DNA from: Microthyrium microscopicum
Taxonomy: Eukaryota
DNA: 64,000 nt
Assembly (NCBI GenBank): GCA_010405405.1
Contig: MU004240.1
Span: forward strand, 1,022,882-1,086,881
Direction: 5' to 3'
The position numbers were made by a program, and so were the translations under genes. Numbering within the stretch: position 1 is the stretch's first letter; every line of letters starts with the position of its first letter. The notes under the pieces are model-generated. The model did no database searches, was not told where the DNA came from, and was given only the letters and a program-made list of their open reading frames with translations. This document shows positions 6,299 through 30,202 of this stretch, one piece after another.

Positions 6299-6724
6299 TG
6301 AAGGGTCGAGTCCATGAAATCACCTGGCGCAAGAAGATTCATATCACATAGGCCATGTTGACATTTCATCGCTCATATCGGCATCGTGACTTCCCCGCTA
6401 CAGACCAGGCGATATTTGTGCCCAGCAGTTCCAATGCTCAGAGTGTTTGATAGCTGCCATAGAGAGGGCGACTAGTGTCCACACCTTGCCTTAAAGACGG
6501 CATTTCTTGGAAAGAAGAGACTTCATAGCATATCTATCGACTGCTACCCGGTTAACCCAAAGCTAACGGTTCCGGCATTAATGAATATGACAAACACTAC
6601 TATCCCAAAGAAATCCCATCATGCCATCGCACTGTGACATGTTTTCCATCGCGCCGTCAAACGCCAACGCCCATAACACAAGTGAAAGACAAGACGAAAG
6701 AATCAAAGCCGCCATCTCAACATC

Positions 6725-7397
6725 TCAAGTATCCGTGCTTCCCTCCTTGGCTTTGTTTTCCTTCAACTGCGCCTCCAGTTCAATAATCTTCTTCTTCAAC
6801 CGTTCATTCTCCATCTTCGCCTCCTCCATCTCCTGTCTTTGCAGCGCCAAGTCTTCTATCCGTGGCGTCGCCGGCACCGCACTCACCGACAACGACGTAC
6901 TTGCCGACCGCCCAGCATGTGGCATAAAAGTCGACGAAGCGTTCGACGTGCTCCTATTGCGTCGTGACCCTGATGGATGTGTCGGGCCAGTTGCTAGAGG
7001 GAGAGGCTGTATGTGGCTGCTTGCGTCTGCGGGGTCCAGAAGGAAGGGAGGCGCGTTGGAGGTTGAGGAAGTAGTACTTGCGACGGAAGCAGAGTGCGCG
7101 CGTAGAGCGGAGAGTTCGCGCGTGAGCCGGTTGACCTTTGGGATAATATGTTAGACATGGAGTTGGGAGAGGGGTGTGGATTGGGCTTACCATAGCTTCC
7201 TGCTCTTGCTCGAGCTCTGAGTGGAGTTCGGCGGCGGTGAGAGCACGCGGGAGACGGTGCGGCATGTTGTTCTCTGTTGGTGGGACACCGGGACTGATGG
7301 GTGGGAATGGTTGGTATGAGCTTCGGCGGCTCGAGGTGTGGGTGGTTGTTGCTGGTGGTGGCATGGAGCCAGGCTCAGGTGTGGGTTCGAGAGGCAT
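6725..7397 (-). CDS. Conserved fungal coiled-coil protein of unknown function
   Basis: Intron 7190-7136 joins ALTAAELHSELEQEQEAM|VNRLTRELSALR. C-terminal coiled coil EMEEAKMENERLKKKIIELE. Confidence 0.7.
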
Positions 7398-7795: not shown

Positions 7796-9356
7796 CTAAT
7801 AAGTTCTAGCAAGATTACGCAGGTACCAATCCACCAGTCGCCGGCCCACTTTAGCTTCAGAAACATGGATAAGATCCTGAATAAGTTAGCATCGGTATTG
7901 TGGAGCATTGTAGCCTGAATATGGTATGAAGAATGAGACTTACCCCTTCTAAGGCATAGTCAAGATCACTACTATTGACTACTTCCCCATCGAGAAGACC
8001 ACGTTCCGTCCATCGTATTTGTCTACTTCGTTGTTTGTTGACAACCAACCAGTGTCTCAGCTGTTCTGGCTCCACATCCAAGAAACCGGCAAGCTTCTTC
8101 AGGTCCATGGTAGTATAGAGCTTGAGATAACTCTTAACAGTGGGGGACCACATGTTATTCTTGACCTCATCCATGAAGATGGCCAAATGATGCTCGACGG
8201 GGTCAAGGTTGAGTTCCGGATTGTCGAAATCTGGAGCAGTCGGCGATATGAACTTAGGGCACGCCTGTTTGAAGAGCTCCTTGAAGATTGGAAGTGAATC
8301 GGGTCCACCTCGTTGCATTCGATTGAACTGCTCTCCATACTTCTCACGAAGCGCGGTGTGAATGGTATCGTCAAGTCTAGTTGGCTGGAAAGCAACGCAG
8401 ATGGCGATGAGCGCATACATTTGATCATTCTTCTTCGCTATCGAGTCATATTGTGAGCTCTTTTGGAAGTTTTTCGTCCGTGAGACATAGATCAGGATAT
8501 GACTGAACATTCTAATGGCGTCCGAGTATCTTCGCATCATCATATATGAGAATCCGACATAATAATATGTCGTGAAATGAGCAGCCATGACACGGGCGAA
8601 CATGGCCTTTTTGTTCAACTCGATATCGTCCAAAGTCTTGAGGGCAAGGCTAAAGTCGCCCAACAGGCAGTGTACTCTAAGAAGACCAATAATTGAGAAG
8701 TAACCCAACATGCGATATAGCGGCCGACTGCCATATTCTCCAGCATATTTGACTGGATCCTCGTTGTGCTTCATGGCTTGAAGTTGTTCGCTGATTTGTG
8801 ACCGCTGAATGAGAGAGTATAGGACGTTTAGAACACTGTAACAACCCCAGACTTGTGGATTATCCTTGAGTAGCGAAATCTCCTCCTCGTTGTCATTCTT
8901 AAGGGCGACGCGTTGACGATAGCTACAAAAGCTGTTGAACTGGTAAATGAACTCGTCGATGACATCCCAGGCCCAGTAGTACTGGTCACAATTATTAGCG
9001 CAAGAATCCAAACAATGCAAACATCAACTCACAGATGGTGCCTCGATGTCCAGTGGTTGTGCAGAATTGAGAAGCTGGTGGAACATGCCACAGAAAGCAT
9101 CGTAGCTCGCGAATCTTGTCTCCAGTGTGGCTTGGAATTCTAGAGGCGCTGCAGCTGCAGCTAGTTGAGCGGATAAATCCTGTATGGCCTGTGGGCCTCC
9201 TGATGGAGCGCGATGAAGATCATTCTGATCGTCTTGTTCGTATTGTACGGCTTCGCGGTAGTCGTCGGCCAGAACGTCCTCATCCGCATCGGAATCTTCT
9301 GCAACCGCTCGAGCAGCGCCGTTCTGCTGATATCCGGGGATTGCTTGGAGACTCAT
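7796..9356 (-). CDS. EIF3L: Eukaryotic translation initiation factor 3 subunit L
   Basis: Exons 9356-9033, 8981-7944 and 7876-7796. Motifs WAWDVIDEFIYQF, LYRMLGYFSIIGLLRVHCLLGDF, SYLKLYTTMDLKKLAGFL; ends DLIHVSEAKVGRRLVDWYLRNLARTY. Confidence 0.95.
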
Positions 9357-9748: not shown

Positions 9749-10716
9749 ATGGCATCCATACTCAAGGTGGCAGTGATTCAGCTCCATGCTGAACCAATGC
9801 AGATGGAGAAGAACTTCTCTCAGTCTGAATCGTACATCAGGTCGGCCGCTGCTCAGAATGCCGAGCTAGCTGTACTGCCGGAGTATCATCTCACAGGCTG
9901 GGTGCCAGATGATCCAGCTTACTTCAAGCTGGCCGATGAATGGGAGACTTATCTCAAAAAGTATCAAGACTTGGCGCGAGAGCTCAAAATCTGCATCGTC
10001 CCAGGTACTATGATTTCGCGAGTGCAGAACGACGATGGCTCTGATGTGCTGCTCAACATTGCATACTTCATCGGTAAGTCTGGCGAGGTCTTAGGCAGTT
10101 ATCGAAAGAAGAATCTATGGTAAGAATCAACAAGTCGTCAGAGCATACAAGGCTCTTACATAATCAGGCATCCGGAGAGAGATCATTTAGTACCAGGAAC
10201 GCAAGATCATGAAGCTTTTGACACGCCCTGGGGTAAAGTAGGTCTGTTGATATGCTGGGACCTTGCCTTTCCAGAAGCTTTTAGAGACCTCGTAACTCAA
10301 GGAGCCAAGCTCATTATCATTCCTACCTTCTGGGGCTTGCATGATTGCTCTGAGCAAGGTGCCGCCTACAATCCTAATGCTGAAGCCCTCTTCATCGAAT
10401 CTACTCTCGTAGCTAGAGCCTTTGAGAACACCTGTTGTGAGTGGTTATTTCCTACTTGAGATGCGCGACTAAACTTGTAGCCATCATTTTCGTCAATGCA
10501 GGTGCGCCAGCTGGTGACTCTATGATTGGGCTCAGTCAGGTTACAGTTCCATTCATTGGTCCTCTGGCCAAATTTGGTAGCTCGCTTCCGGGAATGATAC
10601 TGGTGGATCTGGACATGAATATCGCAGAGCATGCTGAGCAGCATTACAAAGTTCGTTCCGATCTGGCGAGAGTGGACTGGCACTATGGACCGAATCGACG
10701 ACCTACGTTGCCTTAG
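9749..10716 (+). CDS. Carbon-nitrogen hydrolase (nitrilase superfamily)
   Basis: Introns 10120-10167 and 10437-10480. E-K-C triad: VLPEY, YRKKNLW|HPE, LLICWDLAFPE; also ARAFEN. Confidence 0.9.
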
Positions 10717-10829
10717 AACACAGCAATCGCAAAGTCTTAATGGCTCGAATTTCCCTGATCTATTCTATGGTTTGTCTGCAGATCAAAGTAATCTATCTCT
10801 CAACCAGTATGCTGCTAGCTTGTTCAGTA

Positions 10830-12819
10830 TCAGTCAAGATCCATTCTTTCAGCCTGCCTGCGGTTCTTCTCATCCTCTATAGCTTTCTGTCGTTCAATAA
10901 TTCGATGATCATGAATGAACTGCAGGAGTACATGGCCAATTCTTCTAGTAAGAATAGGCGGGATTGCGTTGTTCACATCAATGTATTGTGACGACAGTGA
11001 ATGATAGAAAACCAAGTTATCCTCAAGTCCCTGAAGCCGAGCCAGTTCGCGAACAGTCAGTGCATCTCCCCGAACTACATTGACCAAAGAACATTCGTTA
11101 GTCTTCATTACAAATCATCCAGAAAAGGAAAGCACAACTTACGAGGATGATGATAAGAAGTGTCGCACGACAAGCCTACAGCTTTACTGTTCAGGTCTAT
11201 CGGCTGTGCCTTCGATATCGAATGGCCCAGTTGGTGGTTATATAGCACCTGCTGCGATATACTCGGCTTGCTTCCTAGTTCCTGGCTCGCGATCGGACAT
11301 GCAAAGCCTGTGATGCTATTTGGCGAAAGACTAGTTCGAGTATTCGAGCGAGGTAGGCCGTCAAGTACTTGTTCCACTGTGATTTCCTTTCGCTGCTGAG
11401 TAGTAGATGGCCAATCGATATGCCATGGCAATGGACCTGGCAGGGCCGACGCTACCAAAAGCAAGATTTTACGAGCTTGCGGAATCCCATGATCTGGCAA
11501 ATGGGCCAGTCTCATATGCACCGAGTAGCGTAGGTCCAGCAGTCTAAGAAGAGTGGCCGCGAACTTATCGGCTGCTTTAGACCGCAGAACTGCTGGCGAG
11601 ATGAGTAATACTATGAAGTCGGGGCCAAGGCTCGTGGCGAGAACAGACTCGATCTTTTCAAGTGGACGGCAGAAGCGCTCCACTGAGGGTAGTGGACTGT
11701 TCTTCTGGATGCGATAGGTAGTGTTTTCGCCGGCAATCACAGCCGTCAGGAAATGTCCTTCTGTGCGGGAAGGTACAGAGCCAAATTGGCCTGTGGCAAT
11801 ATCTTCCAGAACTTCTCGAGTGTGTCCGTCGAATACCTGAGTGGAGCTGTTACGGCCATGGCGACACATCCATGTCATATGTTGGGATGGATCGAAACCT
11901 ACGGCAGAGTGAATCTGATGACCAGCTTGAGCGAATCCTTCAGCTAGACCCAGAACTCTCGGCGACAAGTCCATAATAGCGGTTTTCGTGGGACTCGGAA
12001 ACTTGTGCCGTTTTGTTCCAGCTTGCTTAGATAGAAGGCTCGACTTGAGCGGTAGATAGCAAGCAACCTCATCCTGATTCGCATACTGCACAGCGAAGCG
12101 GCAAAAGTAAGTGTCATCTGAGTCTGGCCGACCAAATCAGCAATCAATATACTTGTAGTCGGACGAAAAAACAAACCTGGAACCTGCACAACATGCTCAA
12201 CACCACGCTCAGTGAGCTTTTCGCTCAACCCCCCAACACCAACGATATCAGCGAAGCAAATTGTCTCCGCATCATTAACTGAGCCCATTACATCTGCCCG
12301 ATCGAAATGCAATACTAGCTCTTGAAGCTTGATCTTCGAGTCTTTTTGCTCCATAGAGCGAAACGGGTACCTCGAGTGAAGGAACGAGTACTTTGTGATG
12401 ACGAGAGACCAAGCAGTTTCTGAATCTATGGCCCCTTCAGTCTTGACGATATTGTGTATTTTGACGACACATGCATACTCGGAGGCAAACGGTGGTCGTA
12501 AACGCAAGCTAGACTCAAATGTTAGTCAAATGTTGCTTTGACAAGCTACAGAACATGAACGACGAACCGGGCAAAAGCATTTTGGCTAAATTTGTACTTT
12601 AAGCGCGGATGGACATACTCCAGTATACTGAATACTGGTTTCTAACAGAGCGGTGGGTCAACAGACTTGAAAGACAAAGCGTGGGAGGACGTGTCGACAT
12701 ACTAAATCTGTAGCTCGCTTCCCACTTGGAGGAAATAATTGCTTGAAGGTACCCGGGAGCTCTTTCTGATGCCACTCTTCCCAAGATTGACTATCTGATA
12801 TTTTGGTTGCTTCTGCCAT
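10830..12819 (-). CDS. BAH-domain, C5-cytosine DNA methyltransferase-like protein with degenerate catalytic motifs (~582 aa)
   Basis: Exons 12819-12703, 12641-12568, 12508-12177, 12123-11143 and 11074-10830 splice in frame at GT-AG sites. BAH-like segment VVKIHNI..QELVL..YFCRF. MTase-like motifs GFAQAG, HGIPQARK, HP.RGDALTVRELARLQG, NAIPPIL. Confidence 0.8.
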
Positions 12820-13525
12820 GGATGGCTTTTCCAGCTTGAAATCATATAAAAGGACGAATAAGATGATATTCTCAATAATTGCGAGAATTGCTCAAGAAAA
12901 TGACTAAAACGATATTCATGGGAAAGCAATGGGATGGCAAATGAGCATTGCAGTGTTAGATTGTTGTCATTGTCTGAGATTCCAGTTCTATTGAGCCTTG
13001 CTGCTCATGCAAGTTGCCGTGCAAACGTGGAAGCTGTAGTCGTCCGAGTCGTCCTACTTCAGTACTTGCCTATTCAGGATAATGTACGGGCGTTCAAGTG
13101 TCTAAGATTTCTGCTGCCACCATAAATCAGTCAGTGACTATGCAATGCTGTATCATCAACCGCACAACCTGGGACACCAAAACCACGTAATACTGTAAGA
13201 AGGGGCTTGAAAAACATGTGCATTAGTCTAGTAATGCTGGGTATAATATACCGACAATGAAGAAAACCTCTGAGAGCACAACAAGTGTACCCAATGCTAA
13301 TTTGAACACACAATCATGGCTCACCAACCGCCGATCTAGCCATCGGTCCGTCTATACAAAACGGAAATCTAGTTTTTTGGTTTGTCCTTTTGGTCATGAG
13401 TTGTATTTTGGAACACCTTGCATATATATCGCATCGTTCTCAACGCAGAGAGATGAGCAGGCAATGTCATAAATCTTGTTCATCGTTCCTCTAAGGTGCG
13501 TGGCTTTATCCTTTTAGACGGGCCA

Positions 13526-15509
13526 TTATAGTGCAGAGCGGATTTCCTCTGCACATTTCCAGGCCTCTTCTACTTTGTCTGCCTTCATCTAGAGATTACG
13601 TTAGCAAGAAACTTGAGTGAGCGTCCGATGGAGGCTTACTCTAAGCAGCATTGTCTGCGATTTATCGGAATTTGGTATATGGCCGCGGAAGAATAGCGTG
13701 TTCACTCCTTCGGGTCGTTTTCCTTCTTTGTTCCCGAACGGGGAGTCCTTGGTGAAAGGTCCATTGAGGACTAGGCGGTTTGTGCCTTCTTGACGCATGA
13801 TCAATCGAGCGGTACGTCTCTTTCGCTTTGGCGTTGCCTGTGCGGTATCTTCATCATCAGCGCGGCGCTTCTTGCTGGTCTTGGCGGTAGGTTTGCTGTC
13901 CTTGGCGGCGGCCGCATCATCTTGAGCATCAGTGGCAGGCGTCGTATCGGCTTCTTCGTCGGCTTGCTCTTCATTTTGAGAATCGGAACCAGATGATTCG
14001 GACGGTTCTTCATACTCTTGCTCATTGGAAATATTTAGTTTGAAAACACCGCGGCCACATTCTTTCCAAGCTCCATCAAATAAGAAGAGCGTTCCCCGAT
14101 TGGCGAACATGGTCGTCTCGTTTTCCTCTCCAGTCTCTACTTCTTTTTGCACAAAGCGTGCGTCTTTAGTCTCGCTACTGCCGCCAAATTGAGGACCTTC
14201 GTTGTTGCCCTCAGCCTCAACGTTCTTATCGTCATCAGTCTCGGATGCATCACCATCCTCCTCCTCATCTGAAACGGGAGCTCCGAATGTTCGAGTAGGT
14301 TTGCTACCTAATCCAGTAGTCGGGGGATTGAGCGCAAAACCAGTGCTGCTGCTCCCAAAGGCCGATAGACCAGGTCTGCCAGATAGTGCGGAGCCGAACG
14401 GGCTAGCAGAAGAAGCTGCCAGGCCGCCAAATCCAGAACCTGGTTTAGCCGCTAGAGCAGAGAATCCAGACGTTGTGCTTGCAGCACCTCCGAAAGCAGA
14501 CTCTGTCTTAGCTAGTCCAATAATTGAAGGTGGTGATTTTGCTCCTGAGATTGCACCAAAAGGACTGGCGCTTCCAGAAGTGCTACCGAGAGCAGCAAAG
14601 CCAGAAGTCTTTGCATTCGCAAGTTTGCTGAAGCTGGAGCTTTCGAAAGCACTTTGTGACGTTGTTGTGTCTTTGGGGGCGGGGAATTTACTGCCGCTCA
14701 AGGCCGCGAAGGGTGAGATTGCAGAGGTATTGCTGAAGCCACCAGGTCCTGCAAGCTGAATTTACATTAGCGTAAGCCAAAAACCATGGAGGGAAATCAC
14801 ATACCTTGGAGACTATAGTGGCAGCCTCAGGGACTTGCTCCTCAAGATTTGGTGCTTCTACGTCGTTACTCTCGCCACCATCTCGTGGACGCTTCGCGCC
14901 ACGCTCATCACTAAGTTTCTCCTTGGGCTTATCGCTAGAAGCAGAATGGAGTTCATTGCTGAGGGATGGAATGTTGTCCTCCTTGAGATATTGATCTCTA
15001 CTTCGCTTTCCTTTAGGGCTCGTCATGGGTACATCGCCTTCAGCAGTATTGGAAGAGGGTTGGGCGCGGGGAGGAGTCGTTGTCGCATTGGCGGAGGCAG
15101 AACCATTCATGATGGTATCGGTATTAGCGGCATCTACAGAAGGAACAAGTTCAGGACTTTTAGAACTGCCATCTCGCGATCGTTTGCGTCCATGGCGTTT
15201 TGGGTCGGTCTGATCGCCATCCTCAGCATCCTGGTCAACTTCGTCACGACTTCGCTTTCCACGCAGGCTGCCAGAGCCTGAGCTTTCTGTGGTGCTCATG
15301 GCGTCTTCGGATTTGGTCGCGCTGGAGGGATCGTTGGAGGGATCGTTGGGTTTGCTATTAGCATCGATGGTTGTCTGTTCTAGTTTTTCGCGCACTGGGC
15401 TTTCGCGATGCTCATTGTCGTTGGTGGGAGGAGTGGTTGGCTCGGTCACTTGAGCTTGTGCAGCGCTGGTGACCTCCTTTGCGTCATGATCAGTATTCGT
15501 AGAGGACAT
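13526..15509 (-). CDS. Nuclear Ran-binding (RanBD1) protein, Yrb2/RanBP3-like
   Basis: Introns 14804-14756 and one starting at 13639. Motifs PVREKLEQTTI, basic NLS-like KRSRD repeats, SGF/SPFG-rich tract, ETGEENETTMF..LFLFDGAWKECGRGVFKLN..ARLIMR..RLVLN. Confidence 0.85.
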
Positions 15510-16672
15510 TTTGACCGGTGGATATCAAAATGGTTTGAAGGTTGACGCGTGGTATTCCTGGCGGAACAGGCGTAACTCAGTTGCAATTGACGTGAACGAG
15601 GAAGCGCCGGCTGGACGGATGGTAGGCGGAGCCAAGAACGGACTCTCAAAGCTGGGACGGAGCGTATTTAAAAAAGTAGGGACCAGTCTGGATAGCGAAG
15701 AATGATCCAGGGCAAGGCAAATGGGTAGATTCGAGAGTGGTTGGCTCAAACTGGCGGTTGGAAATTGGGAGCCTGAAAGACACGGCTGATGGCGTTGCTG
15801 TCAGGTTTTGAGTGGACGGACAGAAGAGAAGAAGGGGTGTCAAGCTTGAGAAACAAAGGCGGTGCTTTGCCAGTATAACAGAGAATATGCGGGCGTAATT
15901 GGAGACTGTTTTTGGTGAGACTTGTTGGGAAGAGAGGTTGTTGGTGGTGATTGACTTGGTCGAGACTTAGCGAGACAACTCATCCGTGGGTCTTGGCACT
16001 ATTCTTTGATAGGCCAATATTACCCGCAGGCAAAATTAATGGCCTTTTATAAAACAAAATACTTATTAAATATCCCGCCCTAGGCAATAATACGCGGTCA
16101 TTCTATCATTCAAGAAGCCCGATAAGAAAGCGTAATGGCGGACAATGGACTAGTACCAGCTACTCTGTGATATGAAATGCTACTCTACTGTCATTGTTTC
16201 CATTGCTTCCACCAGTTTGCTGTCGTCATGAAGACCAGATTGGTATGCACCACATTCACAGGTCTATTGGAGCAAAAAGTTTTGATGTAAAGTAGAGAGG
16301 AGAATTTTGCATTACTCTTCGAGTTGAACATACAAAATATGATACAGAAAGAACGCCATGCAATCCGCGATTTTGCCAAGGTCCCAGTCTATGCTTCTTC
16401 AATCCTTTCGCCTTTTGAACACACGCTGGTAAACAAGATCGGAACCATCCAAGAGCCTTTTATCGTGTCTCTGCTAGCTGTCCTTTCCTCTTGTACGACT
16501 GCTTCCGATTCACCCTTCTACAAAATACAAGAGGAGAAGAGTGTGAAGCCCGCTAAATATATACATGTACAAGAGTTAGAAAGGTATAGAGGTACAGACG
16601 TCGAAATGTGCCGTTGGGGAATCGAGAGAAGAATATTAATAAAACTTGTTTCAAACATTTTCAATGTTGCCT

Positions 16673-24143: not shown

Positions 24144-25681
24144 CTATCGTGGAAGCAGTACCTGCCATCTAGAAATGACCCGGAATGTGGACAGATCATC
24201 ATAGTCTCTCCCATCCTCATTGCCAATTAAGCCCACCGCTGGACACGTTGTCAACGCGATTCTTCTGCCTGTATACAGCGGCAACTTGAGGTGCTGAGAG
24301 TGATGAATATCATGAAAGTTCCAATCAAAGTGGACACTCGATTTAACGTCCTCCTCTGGAAGAGCCACAAGTAAGTGAGCTCCCCTGCTGTGTATTCGAA
24401 GGGCGAGACGAACGGCACGCAGGTAGATACGAGAAAGTACCACCGCGTCTGCCCACTCCATCGGCCTTTGAAGGAGTAGCTTGAGTGGTCCACGGACCAT
24501 TATGCCAACGGACTCTTCACATTTCTTGTTAAGAGAGTGTTTCATTTTATCCCTCACTAATGGGTTAGCTCCTGGGGAATTGCAGCCATGGAGAAAGTTC
24601 GCAAAGTCCTGTATTGTGTTTGCGCGCCAAAGCTGACTGGCTGGAAAGTCGCCTGGTAAAGTTAGCAAGTGGACATGGGATAGAGCGGGTGTGGAAACTT
24701 ACCTTTCATACGATGTTCGTACGAATCTGCGAAAGATAAGCCTGGGGGACGGTTTTGAGCATGGTCAAGTATCGACAAAGGTTTGCTGATGATCTCGAAG
24801 ACGAGGTTATACATGATCATGGCACTTGCTAAGTAGATCGGTGCTTCTTCCTGTTTGCTCAGGTCTCTCAGTGCGTAGTCCAGAGTATGTAGTTGAATGT
24901 TCTGGACAGCAATCGGGCTCCAGGCATTGCACAATATCTGAAAGTCGTCTAGGGTGTCTGCTCTGCTTTTAAGTTCATCAAATGTCGTGGAGCAGGTTTG
25001 GCGAGCCCATTTCTCAACATCATCTCGCATTTTACCCAAGAGGTACCCAATCTCTTTCTCTGTTATGGGGGGCTGAGGGTGAACGACCGAGTGGTGAGCT
25101 GGTATGACTCGGACAGGCGGCCAAACTTCTCGTTGTGGCTCTTGACGTAATGGTCTTTGACTGGCTTTTGCTGCCCGTGAAACATGCTGCCCAGAGTCTG
25201 TTTCTATATAATATCCGACGTATTCATTTTGATTTTTGTCGTTGTCCTGCTGAGTAGACCGGTTATCATTTACTGTCTGACTGGCTTTTGCTTCTCTTTG
25301 CTGCCTAGGGTCTGATTCGAAATGCCATCCGATTATTTCTTTTGGCATTTCACGGTTGTTCCCCTGGGTGGAATGGATATCCGTTACTGTCGTAGTATTC
25401 AGGAGCTTCGACCCTCTCTCATCGCCTTGGCCTAGTGGTGGGTTTCGACTCTGTGAACGAGCAAGAGATTTACTCCTTCTTCTTGCTTCTGGGCCAGGAC
25501 TTCGAGAATAGCTTCTTCTTCGATAATTCGATACTTGACATTGGCCCAAAAAATTCTGATCTGGCCGGTTTGACTGGACGTATCGATGATGTTGAGTTAC
25601 GTTTGGGGGATTGCACGCCGGGTTGAACCTCAGTTCGAATCTATATTCTGGGTAATCGTTGAAATCGTGATTATTTGACAT
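24144..25681 (-). CDS. Hypothetical protein: low-complexity N-half, helical C-half ending in a PAVGLIGNEDG.DY motif
   Basis: The 339-aa and 174-aa ORFs join in frame through intron 24702-24653 (GTAAGT..GCTAAC..CAG). Confidence 0.7.
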
Positions 25682-27080
25682 CTTGCAAGAGGCTGATAAT
25701 CGTAGCAGAAAATCGAAGATAGAGAGTTCTTCGTCTGTTGTAAATTTTATTTGTTCAGCACGGAAGATTTATTATGTGACAGGAACTAGTCAAGAACACA
25801 ACATTGCTAGGCATGGTAAGGCTTATATAGCCTCCAGATGGAAGAAAAGTAGTCAACTACGGATGAGCAAAGAACTAGCGTAGGCCCGGCGAGTACTTTC
25901 TCAGAGACTTTGCGATGTTTAGCCTTGGTACGATAAGCGTGTTCTCAATATGAAAAATGATGTTGGCTCTCGCCTAGCAGGCAAAGCTTTCATTTTTTCT
26001 TTGGTTGAAAAATATACGATGGTTCTGACCATAACTGTTAGTGAACCTAGACTCTTTAATCCGACCCAAAATCATCATCCAAATGTGAGATTATTGAAGT
26101 GGTACTCGGTAGGTAGCGATATGAAATTTAGCAACCGATGGGTCAAGTACCTTGAGTATCTGATGGAATAGATGTAGAAACCCAAAACACAACGTCTACG
26201 AAGAAGTTCTGTCATCTCAAGTTCTCAACTTAGCACAAGCCACAAGTTTACCCCATAGGTTCAACTTGGTTACGATAACATAGTAGAACTAACCGTAGGT
26301 ACCTTCGGCGATACCGCCAGGACAGGTGTTCATGAGAACTGAGAAATATCGGTACACTAACTCTTATCAGGACAAAAATTCTCTAGACTAGAACAGATAG
26401 CCAAACGGCGACCAAGGTTTCACTGAATATAAGTCCTTCGTATGACTAACTCACCTGCAGCAACATATGACTGGTGGCATTTTGGAACTGCAACGAGAGC
26501 AATCCTGCACCTTTATGAGTTTCTATGGCATGTTATGTAAGCCTTCTCTTCCGATCTGAGGATAAGTGAGGCACAATGATGTCTCCCACTTATCGAGGTC
26601 ACAGCCAGAAGACCTTCATTGTTGATGCAAATGTCTTTCAAGATTCACATTGATGTCAAATCTTGTCCTTATAACAGCACTACGTATGTGTTTGTGGCTT
26701 TGGGGCAATTTGATTGACTGCATTCGTGTTTTCTAAATGTATTGTTCAGTAGCAAGTTGGAAGATTAATAGGCCAAAGCAGGACGAAATGGCAACTTTGT
26801 AAAGTAAGAGAGGCTGATGCAATCACTCTGATCATATGTAGTATGACTTCTAGCGTCTTAACATCATTTATATTTCACAATTTAGCCAATATCACACCAA
26901 TCACGTTCTTGCGTTATATCATGGGATACGTTATTGTAATACGATCCATTCATTAGGCAGTCACTGTAGTCATGCTCTTGTGAGGAGGTATATAAAGGAG
27001 TCAGCTCTACTCATCGTGGGTTGTTTCGATCGGGCTTCTTGAACAAAAATTGAAACGAATTGCGATATTGAAGAACTACA

Positions 27081-28690
27081 ATGCAGGAAAACGCTTCAGC
27101 TGCCATCTGGCGCACAGTATTAGAGCCTCAATTGCGCATTCTATTGGAAGAGGTAAGATCACATAAATTGGTATGCTTAGCTCGATGTAGCATGGTACAG
27201 TAGCGATCGAATAGTTGCTGTTCTGAGAAGTGCTGATCTCCAACAATGTCCCAAATAAGTTGCCGATTTTTGTAGCACTTGATGGCAGATATAATGCGAA
27301 ATAGCATCCATGATACAATATGGGAGACTCAGGCTCATGGCTTAATCTAGGCAGGCAGCCAAGGCAGCGTATCGATTGAACCCACCATCGCGCGAGTTGG
27401 AGATCAGCTAGAGAACTATAAGATTCTTGGCCCTGCACCCAAGATTTCAGAAAATAAGCCCTGGTACATTTCCCCATTTAGTAGTTGCCGAGAGTCTATC
27501 ATCGGCTTCTGTGGCTCCCAGAACATACGGCGGTAGCCTTCGCGTGTCATGTATCACTGACATGCAACCGCGCCATGAGACTCCGAGGGCGCTATCTGAT
27601 ATCGAACTGTGAGCTGATAATAAACAGGCCGACAATCTTGGGAGAGGATCATACGCCTTTGCAATTGGAACTGAGCATCTCAAAATCGAAGATGGCGGTT
27701 CGCGTCATATTCGAGCCTATTTCTGCCACAACTGGCTCAAGTCACGACCCGATCAATTGGATCGCACCTTCAAAATACATCGTGCGCCTGGTAAACAAGA
27801 CCTATCCAGTGGAAATGCACTGGTATGATAGCCTGTGCTCCTACATGCTGCTTTGCTATCCCAATGATGCCCGGAAGAGCAGCCATGGGCTCTCGCAGCA
27901 AGTATTTGCTTTCGACGTAGATCGCCTTGGCCGCACTCGACCGAAGATGAAGGTCTACTTCAACCCGAACGCAAAGATAATGGCTGAGCTACATGTAGAC
28001 GAGGAACATAGACCCAGTTACCGTCAAACTCTGTTTAGGGATGCTTTGAGCTCCATTGGATTTGCTGAACCGTGGAGTCGTATTGAGGAATACCTGGTTC
28101 AAAGGGCTGAAAATGGTAAGCAAGTCTTCTTGGATGCTCTAAGCTGGGATACTTGCGAGCCCAGGAAGGCTCGGATGAAGATTTTCATACGATCCGATTG
28201 CACATCGCTCGAAGACTTGCTCTCGCACATCACTCTCGGTGGGACGCTGGCAAATGATAAGATCCACGAGACTGAACTTGCGGCGAAAGAAATGTGGAAT
28301 GCTTTCAAGAGTCATGAACAGGCCGTTACGGTAGCTTGCGGATACGAGTTGCGCCGTGGTCAGAACGAGCCAGTTGGTGTTGAGTGTAAGTGAAGATCTG
28401 ATGCTCGGTTGTCAGAAGTTTATTTAATTCTTCATGCAGTCCATTTCTATCTGAATGACTTCGGATCAAGCGATGAAGAAATCGCCCAGAAGCTTGATAG
28501 CTTTCTTGTTGGTAAGATGGGAAAATCGCCAGGATGGTACAAGGAGATGATTGAAAAGTTCTGCTCCTATCGACCATTGAGTTCTCGAACTGGGGTCCAG
28601 CTAAGTGTGGGAAGCACCGTCCGACATGGAAATTGGGATGTGACTGTTCATCTGTCACCCGAGGCGTACGCACCAGAGAGACGGATTTGA
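27081..28690 (+). CDS. DMATS/ABBA-family aromatic prenyltransferase, divergent (~397 aa)
   Basis: TATATAAA near 26990. Exons 27081-27152, 27351-27463, 27628-28385 and 28440-28690 are in frame. Motifs IW..L..LLEE|AG, LGPAP, W.TIL..DHTP, VRVIFEP..G..DPIN, KMKVYF, LSWD..ARMKIF, TLGG, YELRRG, SDEEIA. Confidence 0.75.
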
Positions 28691-28926: not shown

Positions 28927-30202
28927 TCAATGTGATAAGTGAGCCGGAAACCACCCATACCAATCCGATCCAGGAACTGGGAGCTGTTGCTTTGCTTTGC
29001 GACGATACCGTACAAGTTCGTAGCTTTCACTGAGCCTTCTTAGATTCTCTTGCAACTTCTCTGGAGACTGTTGTAAAATGAACGTGTCATGGAGACAGTG
29101 AATATTAAGATTCCCATCTGGAAATTTCACTAAGTACGCCCCATCATGGTTTCGCGATGGACCTTCCATGAAATAGCGTAGAGAGATATTCTCGAGTTTC
29201 TCAAGCTTTGCCAGCGTACTAATGATGTATTCTGTTGGAGGGCCCGCTGGTGTCCAATACGATTGGAAATGGCTCCTCTCGACCACTTTCAGCGACGGGC
29301 TATGCCTGACCAGGAACTCTTGAAGATGATCCTGGGTCCAGTGAGGATCGGGGTTGACTCCGCAAAGGCTGAATCGAGGCTCATTAGGTGTGATCTCAGT
29401 GTCAAGAGGAAAATATATGTTTGGATGCCCGCTTGTCCCGGGAAATGTCTGCGGAAACACAAACGCCAATCGTTTCAGCTTGGGAAATGGAAGGCTAAGA
29501 AGCCAGCCCGGACTTGTCCTCTGCGCTAGATCTGCCAGATGAACACTGTCAGGCAATCGCTCCGGTCGGATAAGTGGGCTCGCTGAGTTGACAGACGACT
29601 AAAGCGTCCAGTAACATGCGTAGAAGGTAATGCCTTTCTAAAAGCCGCATGCGGTGCAATCCTATTTACAGTGGTGCCTATGTGAAGCCAGTGTGTATTT
29701 GAATTGGCAGTATAAAAGCCATCAAAGCAGCGAGACTGGCCAGAGAAGAACCATGAGTTCCTGTCTCAGTCAATGTGATTTTCCGAAGATTTGAAAGTCC
29801 TGAAAGAGCTTTGGCTAGTAGTACGACGTCTTGACGCCGTTCAGTTACATCGAGGCGATCCTCAAGCTCTCTATATAGAGGCTCGAGCAGACCAGATGAT
29901 AGGTATTTTTGAGGTAGTGGTAGATCAGCCCATGCAGTATTGGGATGAAGGGTCTCGCTGAGAATCAAATTTTGAGTCCAGCTGCCATCGCGGAAAATTG
30001 TGATTTGGTGACTTCAGCCAAGTTTTAAGCCCGTCACCAGTAAACTGAAAGCACTGTAAGACGAAGCATCGCTGGAAGATATGAAAAGTGATAAGCTGCA
30101 GTTCTCTGGATGTGAGCCTGAGTTGTTTGATGTCGTTCAAGTCAAGAAAGGAGAGGATCATGTAAAAAGTTTTGCCGGCAACGCGACAAGGGTGGGTTCC
30201 AT
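28927..30202 (-). pseudogene. Frameshifted F-box-domain gene remnant
   Basis: MEPTLVALPAKLF/YMILSFLDLNDIKQLRLTSREL is an F-box pattern that needs a +1 frameshift in a T run near 30165. Further frame breaks near 30025, 29995 and 29680-29560 have no clear intron signals. LRR-like tracts LSNLRKITL, FPKLKRLAF, LEKLENISL. Confidence 0.6.

Follow-up and report, generated by a model that had tools for sequence, protein, structure and literature searches.

Beside DNMT3L, DRM3 of Arabidopsis is a second example of a dead paralogue of a DNA methyltransferase (DNMT). In the accessible parts of the sources cited here and below, DNMT3L is described as a retained DNMT-fold paralogue without catalytic residues (PMC13297926; bioRxiv 10.1101/2020.04.09.033167), and five DNMT families are distinguished in fungi, namely DNMT1, DNMT2, DIM-2, RID and DNMT5 (PMC9676040). 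DnmtX of Kwoniella (Tremellales), which combines BAH with a Dnmt catalytic domain and actively methylates DNA de novo in vivo (bioRxiv 10.1101/149385), is an orphan outside these five standard families (bioRxiv 10.1101/2023.01.30.526367). Prokaryotic MORC and paraMORC systems are linked to cytosine methyltransferases (MTases) (bioRxiv 10.64898/2026.09.30.754977). Here we analyze a gene on the minus strand, at positions 10830-12819, of a 64-kb stretch of the Microthyrium microscopicum genome (contig MU004240.1, positions 1,022,882 to 1,086,881), which we refer to as the window. Its 582-amino-acid (aa) product, P0001, is very probably a conserved pseudo-DNMT, and the gene is an unusual short form within a family of DNMT-fold pseudoenzymes. 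Like DNMT3L, the protein retains the DNMT fold and appears to be catalytically dead. DnmtX is likewise described as BAH plus a Dnmt domain but is active, a comparison made by description only.

The coding sequence begins with an ATG at 12819 and ends with a stop codon at 10830-10832, and an in-frame stop lies 24 codons 5' of the ATG (open reading frame 12658..12891). There are five exons, all on the minus strand. Exon 1 (12703..12819, aa 1-39) contains the conserved residues D9, W13 and W16, which come after a linker in the long relatives described below. The predicted BAH-like domain begins in exon 2 (12568..12641, aa 40-64, with a split last codon), continues through exon 3 (12177..12508, aa 64-175), which is all-beta in the structural model, and ends in exon 4 (11143..12123, aa 175-502), which also encodes most of the MTase-like domain. 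Exon 5 (10830..11074, aa 502-582 and the stop) holds motifs IX and X, together with a helix at the C-terminus. The introns at 12642-12702 (61 nt), 12509-12567 (59 nt), 12124-12176 (53 nt) and 11075-11142 (68 nt) all have GT..AG borders.

An earlier note, written from the letters of this DNA alone, had described an intact five-exon gene with canonical splice sites for a protein of about 582 aa, and this model is confirmed on two sides. The spliced translation is identical, letter for letter, to P0001, deposited at NCBI as hypothetical protein BT63DRAFT_69784 of M. microscopicum, a dothideomycete. One public run (X1) covers the stretch, in the form of contigs, and its label 'RNA?' is a guess. 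A single 6403-nt contig of this run covers 10300-13400 with 0 mismatches and is missing precisely the four introns, with joints at 12641/12703 and 12508/12568 on either side of exon 2. The same contig also lacks 10437-10480, a plus-strand GT..AG intron of the neighbouring carbon-nitrogen (CN) hydrolase gene. Since five introns are removed precisely and on the correct strands, the contig derives from spliced RNA; therefore, the pseudo-DNMT gene is transcribed and the 582-aa model is right. Neither the expression level nor the transcript ends are given by this contig. A shorter exon 2 (donor at 12618, 565 aa) was also considered, and it is ruled out by the contig joints and by the alignment with the relative P0002.

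Relatives were collected with phmmer, run exhaustively against 1.84 billion representatives; 719 proteins matched at E ≤ 0.001, of which 106 reached E ≤ 1e-10 and 25 reached E ≤ 1e-30. Our alignment A2 contains 109 of the 151 listed matches, the 42 left out being mostly short fragments. True DNMT rows in A2 read DLFCGAGGLSLG, GGP-PCQGFS, xEN-V, GVPQxRxR and GNAVPP, while the same columns of the window protein read DLSPRVLGLAEG, IAG--ENTTYR, LI-SPAV, GIPQARKI and NNAIPP. The motif I remnant DLSPRVLG (aa 226-233, 11948..11971, minus strand as for all motifs here) replaces the FxGxGG loop that binds S-adenosylmethionine (SAM), with SPRVLG in the columns where true DNMTs have FCGAGG or similar. 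In the motif IV remnant IAGENTTY (aa 304-311, 11714..11737) the Pro-Cys is absent and appears as an alignment gap, and LISPAV (aa 348-353, 11588..11605) stands in place of the ENV of motif VI. Motif VIII, GIPQARK (aa 387-393, 11468..11488), keeps the Gln and the first Arg, and its second Arg is replaced by Ile in PQARKI. Motif IX, LTVRELARLQG (aa 507-517, 11028..11060), is strongly conserved, and the motif X remnant NNAIPP (aa 536-541, 10956..10973) corresponds to GNAVPP in the true DNMT rows. HGIPQAR(K) lies at aa 386-393, and HHPLRGDALTVRELARLQG straddles the junction of exons 4 and 5. All motifs quoted in the earlier note are thus present, in the same columns as the motifs of true DNMTs, and the motifs for the chemistry are indeed replaced.

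The window protein lacks the Gly-rich loop for SAM, the Cys that serves as nucleophile, the Glu of ENV and, in motif VIII, the second Arg. These are functional residues of the C5-MTase mechanism. In the best explanation, the MTase fold would no longer be able to bind SAM or carry out methyl transfer. The replacements recur across A2 (n=109, with motif classes assigned by our own regular expressions): motif I is degenerate in 46 rows, intact in 19 and uncovered in 44; motif IV is degenerate in 64, intact in 20 and uncovered in 25; motif VI is degenerate in 76, intact in 20 and uncovered in 13; and motif X is degenerate in 44, intact in 18 and uncovered in 47. Apart from P0043 and P0062, the intact rows are ordinary DNMTs of low rank. 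Moreover, the replacements themselves are conserved family-wide, as DLSPxVLGxSEGF, AGxNxxFRL and PPAxLH. Such non-random replacement motifs, and a conserved surface that could mean a new site, might indicate that the protein is still an enzyme, with a remodelled pocket for another cofactor or substrate and a different reaction on DNA or RNA. We consider this very improbable, as all four of the functional elements named above are absent and no conserved Cys is found in the catalytic loop across family members.

The fold itself was followed both by profile and by structure. The Pfam DNA_methylase profile PF00145 matches the 582-aa protein with 36.7 bits (cut-off 22) over residues 352-550, corresponding to profile positions 113-321 of 324 and to motifs VI-X, and the half of the profile with motifs I-IV is unmatched. 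Exon 5 by itself scores 24.9 bits (profile positions 277-322). The best sequence matches in the PDB are MET1/DNMT1 chains (E 1.8e-5), over HGIPQARK and HHPLRGDALTVRELARLQG...NNAIPP, i.e., motifs VIII and IX-X, and none of the 30 PDB sequences that P0001 matches at E ≤ 1 is a DIM2 chain. An AlphaFold2 model built from the 109-row alignment has a mean predicted local distance difference test score (pLDDT) of 90.7 and a predicted template modelling score (pTM) of 0.91. With this model as query, Foldseek places DNMT1, MET1, ZMET2 and DIM2 at the top of the PDB (E 1e-20 to 1e-17). Alignment with VIA-align gave Z 21.3 for mouse DNMT1 (4da4_B; 440 aligned residues, model 42-557 against chain 747-1600), Z 20.5 for DIM2 (9baz_A; 423 aligned residues, model 47-561) and Z 18.9 for ZMET2. 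The values for the bacterial enzymes are similar, with Z 21.0 for 3g7u (root-mean-square deviation (rmsd) 2.8 Å over 297 residues), Z 20.3 for HaeIII and Z 18.9 for HhaI, and the single-domain enzymes superpose at rmsd 2.8-3.0 Å over model residues 220-561. Residues ~220-560 (10899..11989, minus strand, including intron 4) are accordingly predicted to be a complete C5-MTase fold. The fold claimed in the earlier note is therefore found in the predicted structure (DNMT1 at Z 21.3, HaeIII and HhaI at about 3 Å), and PF00145 recognizes it above the cut-off through motifs VI-X only.

The N-terminal part of the protein is predicted to be a BAH-like domain. Residues ~40-215 (12002..12641, minus strand, including introns 2 and 3) are all-beta in the model and lie at the place of the BAH domain or domains in DNMT1, DIM2 and ZMET2. 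The alignments with these BAH-bearing chains comprise 423-447 residues and start at model residues 36-57. In the bacterial MTases, 262-297 residues align, limited to model residues 219-562, and the BAH-bearing chains thus add ~130-170 residues. In the Atlas structure search, residues 1-575 aligned to a cluster in which 98% of the members have BAH. The BAH-like domain of the earlier note is therefore supported by the predicted structure, but not by the Pfam BAH search.

Our results place the window protein beside DNMT1, MET1, the CMT ZMET2 and DIM-2, in which a BAH-type beta domain directly precedes a bilobal C5-MTase fold, as the predicted structure suggests for the window protein; these proteins are its best structural matches, and MET1/DNMT1 its best PDB sequence matches through motifs VIII-X. 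Unlike this group, it lacks FxGxGG, PC, ENV and the second Arg of motif VIII. It also has one predicted BAH-like domain only and a short segment between motifs VIII and IX (~115 aa). Pfam finds PF00145 in the window protein, together with one unrelated match below threshold, and no ADD or other reader domain, RFTS, CXXC or chromo.

The degenerate proteins form a family of their own. In a tree of 49 proteins spanning motifs I-X (IQ-TREE quick search, LG+G4, 566 columns), all 37 degenerate proteins, P0001 included, form one clade on a stem of length 1.18, with a Shimodaira-Hasegawa-like approximate likelihood-ratio (SH-aLRT) support of 100. The motif-intact P0043 is sister to this clade with support 90, at a join where long branches meet. 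Independent support for the sister relation comes from a long N-terminal module that P0043 has in common with family members (25% identity to P0004 over 736 columns, E 2e-31). This module was not found in P0138 and P0062, the intact proteins that branch off next. Within the degenerate clade, the Sordariomycete members form a separate group (support 98) and the Microthyrium protein groups with Eurotiomycete members (support 93), as vertical descent would give. Decay confined to one lineage had been named in the earlier note as the outcome that would speak against a retained paralogue, and this is not the pattern observed, as the 36 other members of the clade share the degenerate motifs and the sister P0043 alone keeps FxGxG/PCQ/ENV.

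P0043 deserves a separate description. This protein of 1413 aa keeps FSGCGG, SCQGFS (with Ser, not Pro, before the Cys), ENV, QHRKR and GNAVPP, and it scores 147 bits on PF00145. It matches DNMT1 with 105.6 bits, compared to 30.4 bits for the DIM2 chain 9baq_A, which suggests that the window protein is not orthologous to DIM-2 either. Judging by these motifs, P0043 may be an active fusion enzyme of a DNMT with the GHKL-type module discussed below.

The taxonomic extent of the family was read from 41 matches at E ≤ 1e-10, 40 of which are named. Members are most abundant in Chaetothyriales (Fonsecaea, Cladophialophora, Exophiala, Rhinocladiella, Phialophora, Knufia and Capronia), where several black yeasts have two old paralogues. 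The family is also represented in Eurotiales (Aspergillus hancockii, A. sclerotialis and Talaromyces pinophilus), Onygenales (Malbranchea), Sordariomycetes (Colletotrichum, Podospora, Lasiosphaeris, Immersiella and Pleurostoma), Dothideomycetes (Zopfia), four genera of Leotiomycetes (Cadophora, Phialocephala, Cudoniella and Bisporella) and a lecanoromycete (Pleopsidium). The family appears to be old and is spread across filamentous ascomycetes. The earlier note had described a retained, degenerate DNMT paralogue, and this part holds; however, the gene is not a single oddity but one of a large family.

P0001 and P0002 are 37% identical over 561 columns (E 7e-93). Of the 75 positions conserved to at least 85% in the other 36 members, P0001 keeps 70, which places it mid-rank in the family and gives no indication of decay. 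Conservation is strongest in the motif IX-X core, at Q390 and R392 of motif VIII, and in the stretches DLxFxNxR and YNHxTG between motifs VIII and IX. A further strongly conserved stretch is the remodelled motif I, D226..P229..LG..EGF. This pattern fits a kept bilobal scaffold with a specific surface, and not a random wreck. The retention proposed earlier is therefore borne out in an expressed, spliced gene that keeps these 70 of 75 family-conserved positions.

The window gene differs from most of its relatives in what precedes the BAH-like domain. Most relatives are ~1200-1460 aa long, and it is their C-terminal ~560 aa that are homologous to the window protein. In the long members P0002-P0021 and P0152-P0170, the N-terminal ~750 aa are outside Pfam recognition, and no HATPase family was found in 18 long relatives at E ≤ 0.01 or in P0002 at E ≤ 1. 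Two boxes stand out in the consensus of this module, RELYQNWKDA of the type ExxxNxxD and AGxHGEGFK of the type GxxGxGxK. At the usual position of the DxGxG box it reads ELxNFxAxL, and ATP binding by the module is therefore uncertain. The fold was modelled on P0176, a protein that consists of the module only (pLDDT 80.2). This model resembles Hsp90/TRAP1 (Foldseek E ~1e-8, VIA Z 13-14.7) and the ATPase regions of topoisomerases II and VI-B (Z ~12, 225-245 residues at 3.9-5.0 Å). On the predicted structure, the module is a GHKL-type ATPase with a transducer-like domain. In a side observation, the long member P0014 of Aspergillus hancockii (1373 aa) ends in an amino-acid permease fragment (PF13520, 28.7 bits), and its deposited model is probably a fusion with a neighbouring gene.

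The same module also occurs without the MTase part, in P0171-P0184 from Zopfia, Pleopsidium, Colletotrichum, Aspergillus sclerotialis, Capronia, Malbranchea, Cadophora, Phialocephala, Cudoniella and Bisporella. In four of these proteins (P0172-P0175) it is joined to the BAH-like part only, and in eight (P0176 and P0178-P0184) to neither part. The C-terminal part of these eight is a different one or is missing; in the Leotiomycetes it is an extra 300-400 aa. Because the module occurs without one or both parts, the BAH-like and dead-MTase unit behaves as a separable accessory module. In the window protein it is the N-terminal module that is missing, with no match within P0001. The protein starts at the domain boundary, with residue 8-9 aligning with about residue 790 of P0002.

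This exact start at a boundary might be the result of a fission, with the window gene as the C-terminal half of a split family member that rebuilds the clamp in trans with a GHKL ATPase encoded elsewhere. The proteins in other fungi that carry the GHKL module without the MTase part, including that of the dothideomycete Zopfia, are in line with such a two-component arrangement. However, tblastn with 15 long relatives at E ≤ 1 detected no coding sequence for the module (their first ~750 residues) in the 64-kb window beyond four chance-level matches (E 0.13-0.94), and we consider a split of this kind unlikely.

With regard to known ATPases, the long relatives are like MORC/GHL proteins in having a Bergerat-fold ATPase and a transducer-like domain at the N-terminus, here joined to a DNMT-fold module; the likeness is one of fold. 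Unlike the prokaryotic MORC/paraMORC neighbourhoods, the fungal family fuses both parts and its MTase part is dead. Unlike MORC, the window gene itself has no ATPase module. The architecture of the family thus suggests a context like that of MORC or of an ATPase clamp, and not so much one like that of DNMT3L.

The earlier note had suggested an analogue of DNMT3L, in which the dead MTase would pair with an active DNMT (DIM-2, DNMT5 or RID) to stimulate or target it, and the BAH-like domain would read chromatin. A retained, inactive DNMT-fold paralogue with a strongly conserved motif IX-X region and fold core is compatible with such a cofactor, by analogy only. On the other hand, the domain is of the DNMT1/bacterial type and not of the DNMT3 type, Pfam shows neither an ADD nor another reader domain, and the usual fusion partner in the family is a GHKL ATPase and not a DNMT. 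In addition, the family is richest in Chaetothyriales, an order of Eurotiomycetes, and this class is nearly without Dim2 according to the accessible part of a survey that treats Rid1, Dim2 and Dnmt5 (PMC12543289). A cofactor of the DNMT3L kind is therefore improbable.

Collectively, our results are best explained by an expressed pseudoenzyme, an N-terminally short member of its family that would act as a non-catalytic reader or targeting module, and we give this reading as a whole a probability of roughly 55%. A binding or targeting module for DNA or chromatin is the best reading because the unit is normally joined to a clamp-forming GHKL-class ATPase. The usual order in the family is a GHKL (Hsp90/topoisomerase-like) ATPase followed by the BAH-like domain and the dead MTase. 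In the proposed mechanism, the dead MTase and the BAH-like domain would form a unit that acts without catalysis as a DNA or chromatin reader or as a targeting module. In most relatives an ATP-driven clamp would carry this unit at its substrate end, whereas the Microthyrium protein would work by itself or with a partner encoded by another gene. For the non-catalytic role at DNA or chromatin, taken by itself, we see about even odds.

Several points weigh against this explanation. Pfam BAH (PF01426) matches neither P0001 nor P0002 at E ≤ 1, nor any of 18 relatives at E ≤ 0.01. The input alignment of the structural model held true DNMTs, and the MTase fold of the model is thus partly inherited from them. 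The role at DNA or chromatin is read from the fold and the fusion partners only. In true enzymes, contacts to the flipped cytosine belong to the C5-MTase mechanism. The residues that hold the flipped cytosine are gone from the window protein, and DNA binding in the manner of the enzymes is therefore not assured. The nearest relatives are only 35-37% identical to P0001, too distant for a ratio of nonsynonymous to synonymous substitution rates (dN/dS). Finally, P0001 has a long terminal branch (1.07, compared to a median of 0.56) and its ATPase module is lost relative to most family members, both of which also fit relaxed constraint.

The long branch and the lost module are what would be expected of a decaying relic, i.e., a gene under relaxed selection since the loss of the ATPase module that most relatives have, functionless though transcribed. 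The frame of 582 codons is, however, open over five correctly spliced exons, the 70 of 75 conserved positions put P0001 mid-rank among the 37 proteins, and the structural model is very confident at pLDDT 90.7. We therefore give little credence to decay and prefer the reading of an expressed, non-catalytic module.

A more far-reaching version would have the family as a sixth, unnamed DNMT-derived lineage of filamentous ascomycetes, forming a fungal counterpart of MORC-type clamps whose dead MTase senses DNA, for example methylated, mismatched or damaged cytosines, the damage arising from repeat-induced point mutation (RIP), in genome defence or heterochromatin. Rare members such as P0043 would then be active, and Microthyrium would hold a free-standing sensor half. 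This scheme is speculative and, in our judgement, unlikely as a whole.

The gene lies among housekeeping genes. On its two sides are an eIF3L/Paf67 gene (7857-9023, minus strand), a CN hydrolase gene (plus strand, frame ending at 10716, intron 10437-10480) that is convergent with the pseudo-DNMT gene, and a gene for a RanBP1-domain protein (13601-15524, minus strand). Other neighbours encode an ICMT-family methyltransferase, AAA ATPases, Hsp70, V-ATPase subunit d and PRPP synthetase. In GC content and RIP indices the gene matches the window as a whole, and its composition is not RIP-like. A mobile element, Starship cargo or a RIP-affected region was considered and rejected because of the housekeeping neighbours and the window-level RIP indices. 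The stop codons of the CN hydrolase and pseudo-DNMT genes are 113 nt apart and one RNA-derived contig spans both genes, and the 3' ends of their transcripts probably overlap. The X1 contig also runs on without a joint 5' of the ATG (12820-13400) towards the RanBP1-domain gene, and because of this continuation the transcription start of the pseudo-DNMT gene is left undefined by the contig. Elsewhere in the window, an open frame at 27485-28393 (plus strand) matches tryptophan dimethylallyltransferase (PF11991, 122 bits) and may belong to a secondary-metabolite cluster. Long frames of 187-368 aa without a Pfam match at E ≤ 0.001 are found at 24662-25768, 14688-15524 and 28927-29598 on the minus strand and at 6591-7154 on the plus strand.

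A widespread pseudo-DNMT family of this kind is apparently so far undescribed. In their accessible parts, PMC13297926 and PMC7862722 name known families only (DNMT1/Masc2, DNMT2, DIM-2, RID/Masc1 and DNMT5). No description of a family combining GHKL, BAH and a dead DNMT was found in the main texts of the literature searched, supplements aside, where the PF00145 tree S9/S5 of PMC12543289 may show the clade unnamed. In public databases, members are automatically named "DNA (cytosine-5-)-methyltransferase" or "hypothetical protein". The family passes the PF00145 cut-off only by way of motifs VI-X. Surveys in which PF00145 matches are counted genome by genome may therefore score family members as the methyltransferases that they cannot be. 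Should the family act on chromatin, the GHKL fusion would connect ATP-driven clamps with readers derived from DNMTs in fungi. The black yeasts of the Chaetothyriales, with two old paralogues per genome, and tractable Sordariomycetes would, if this is true, be natural test systems.

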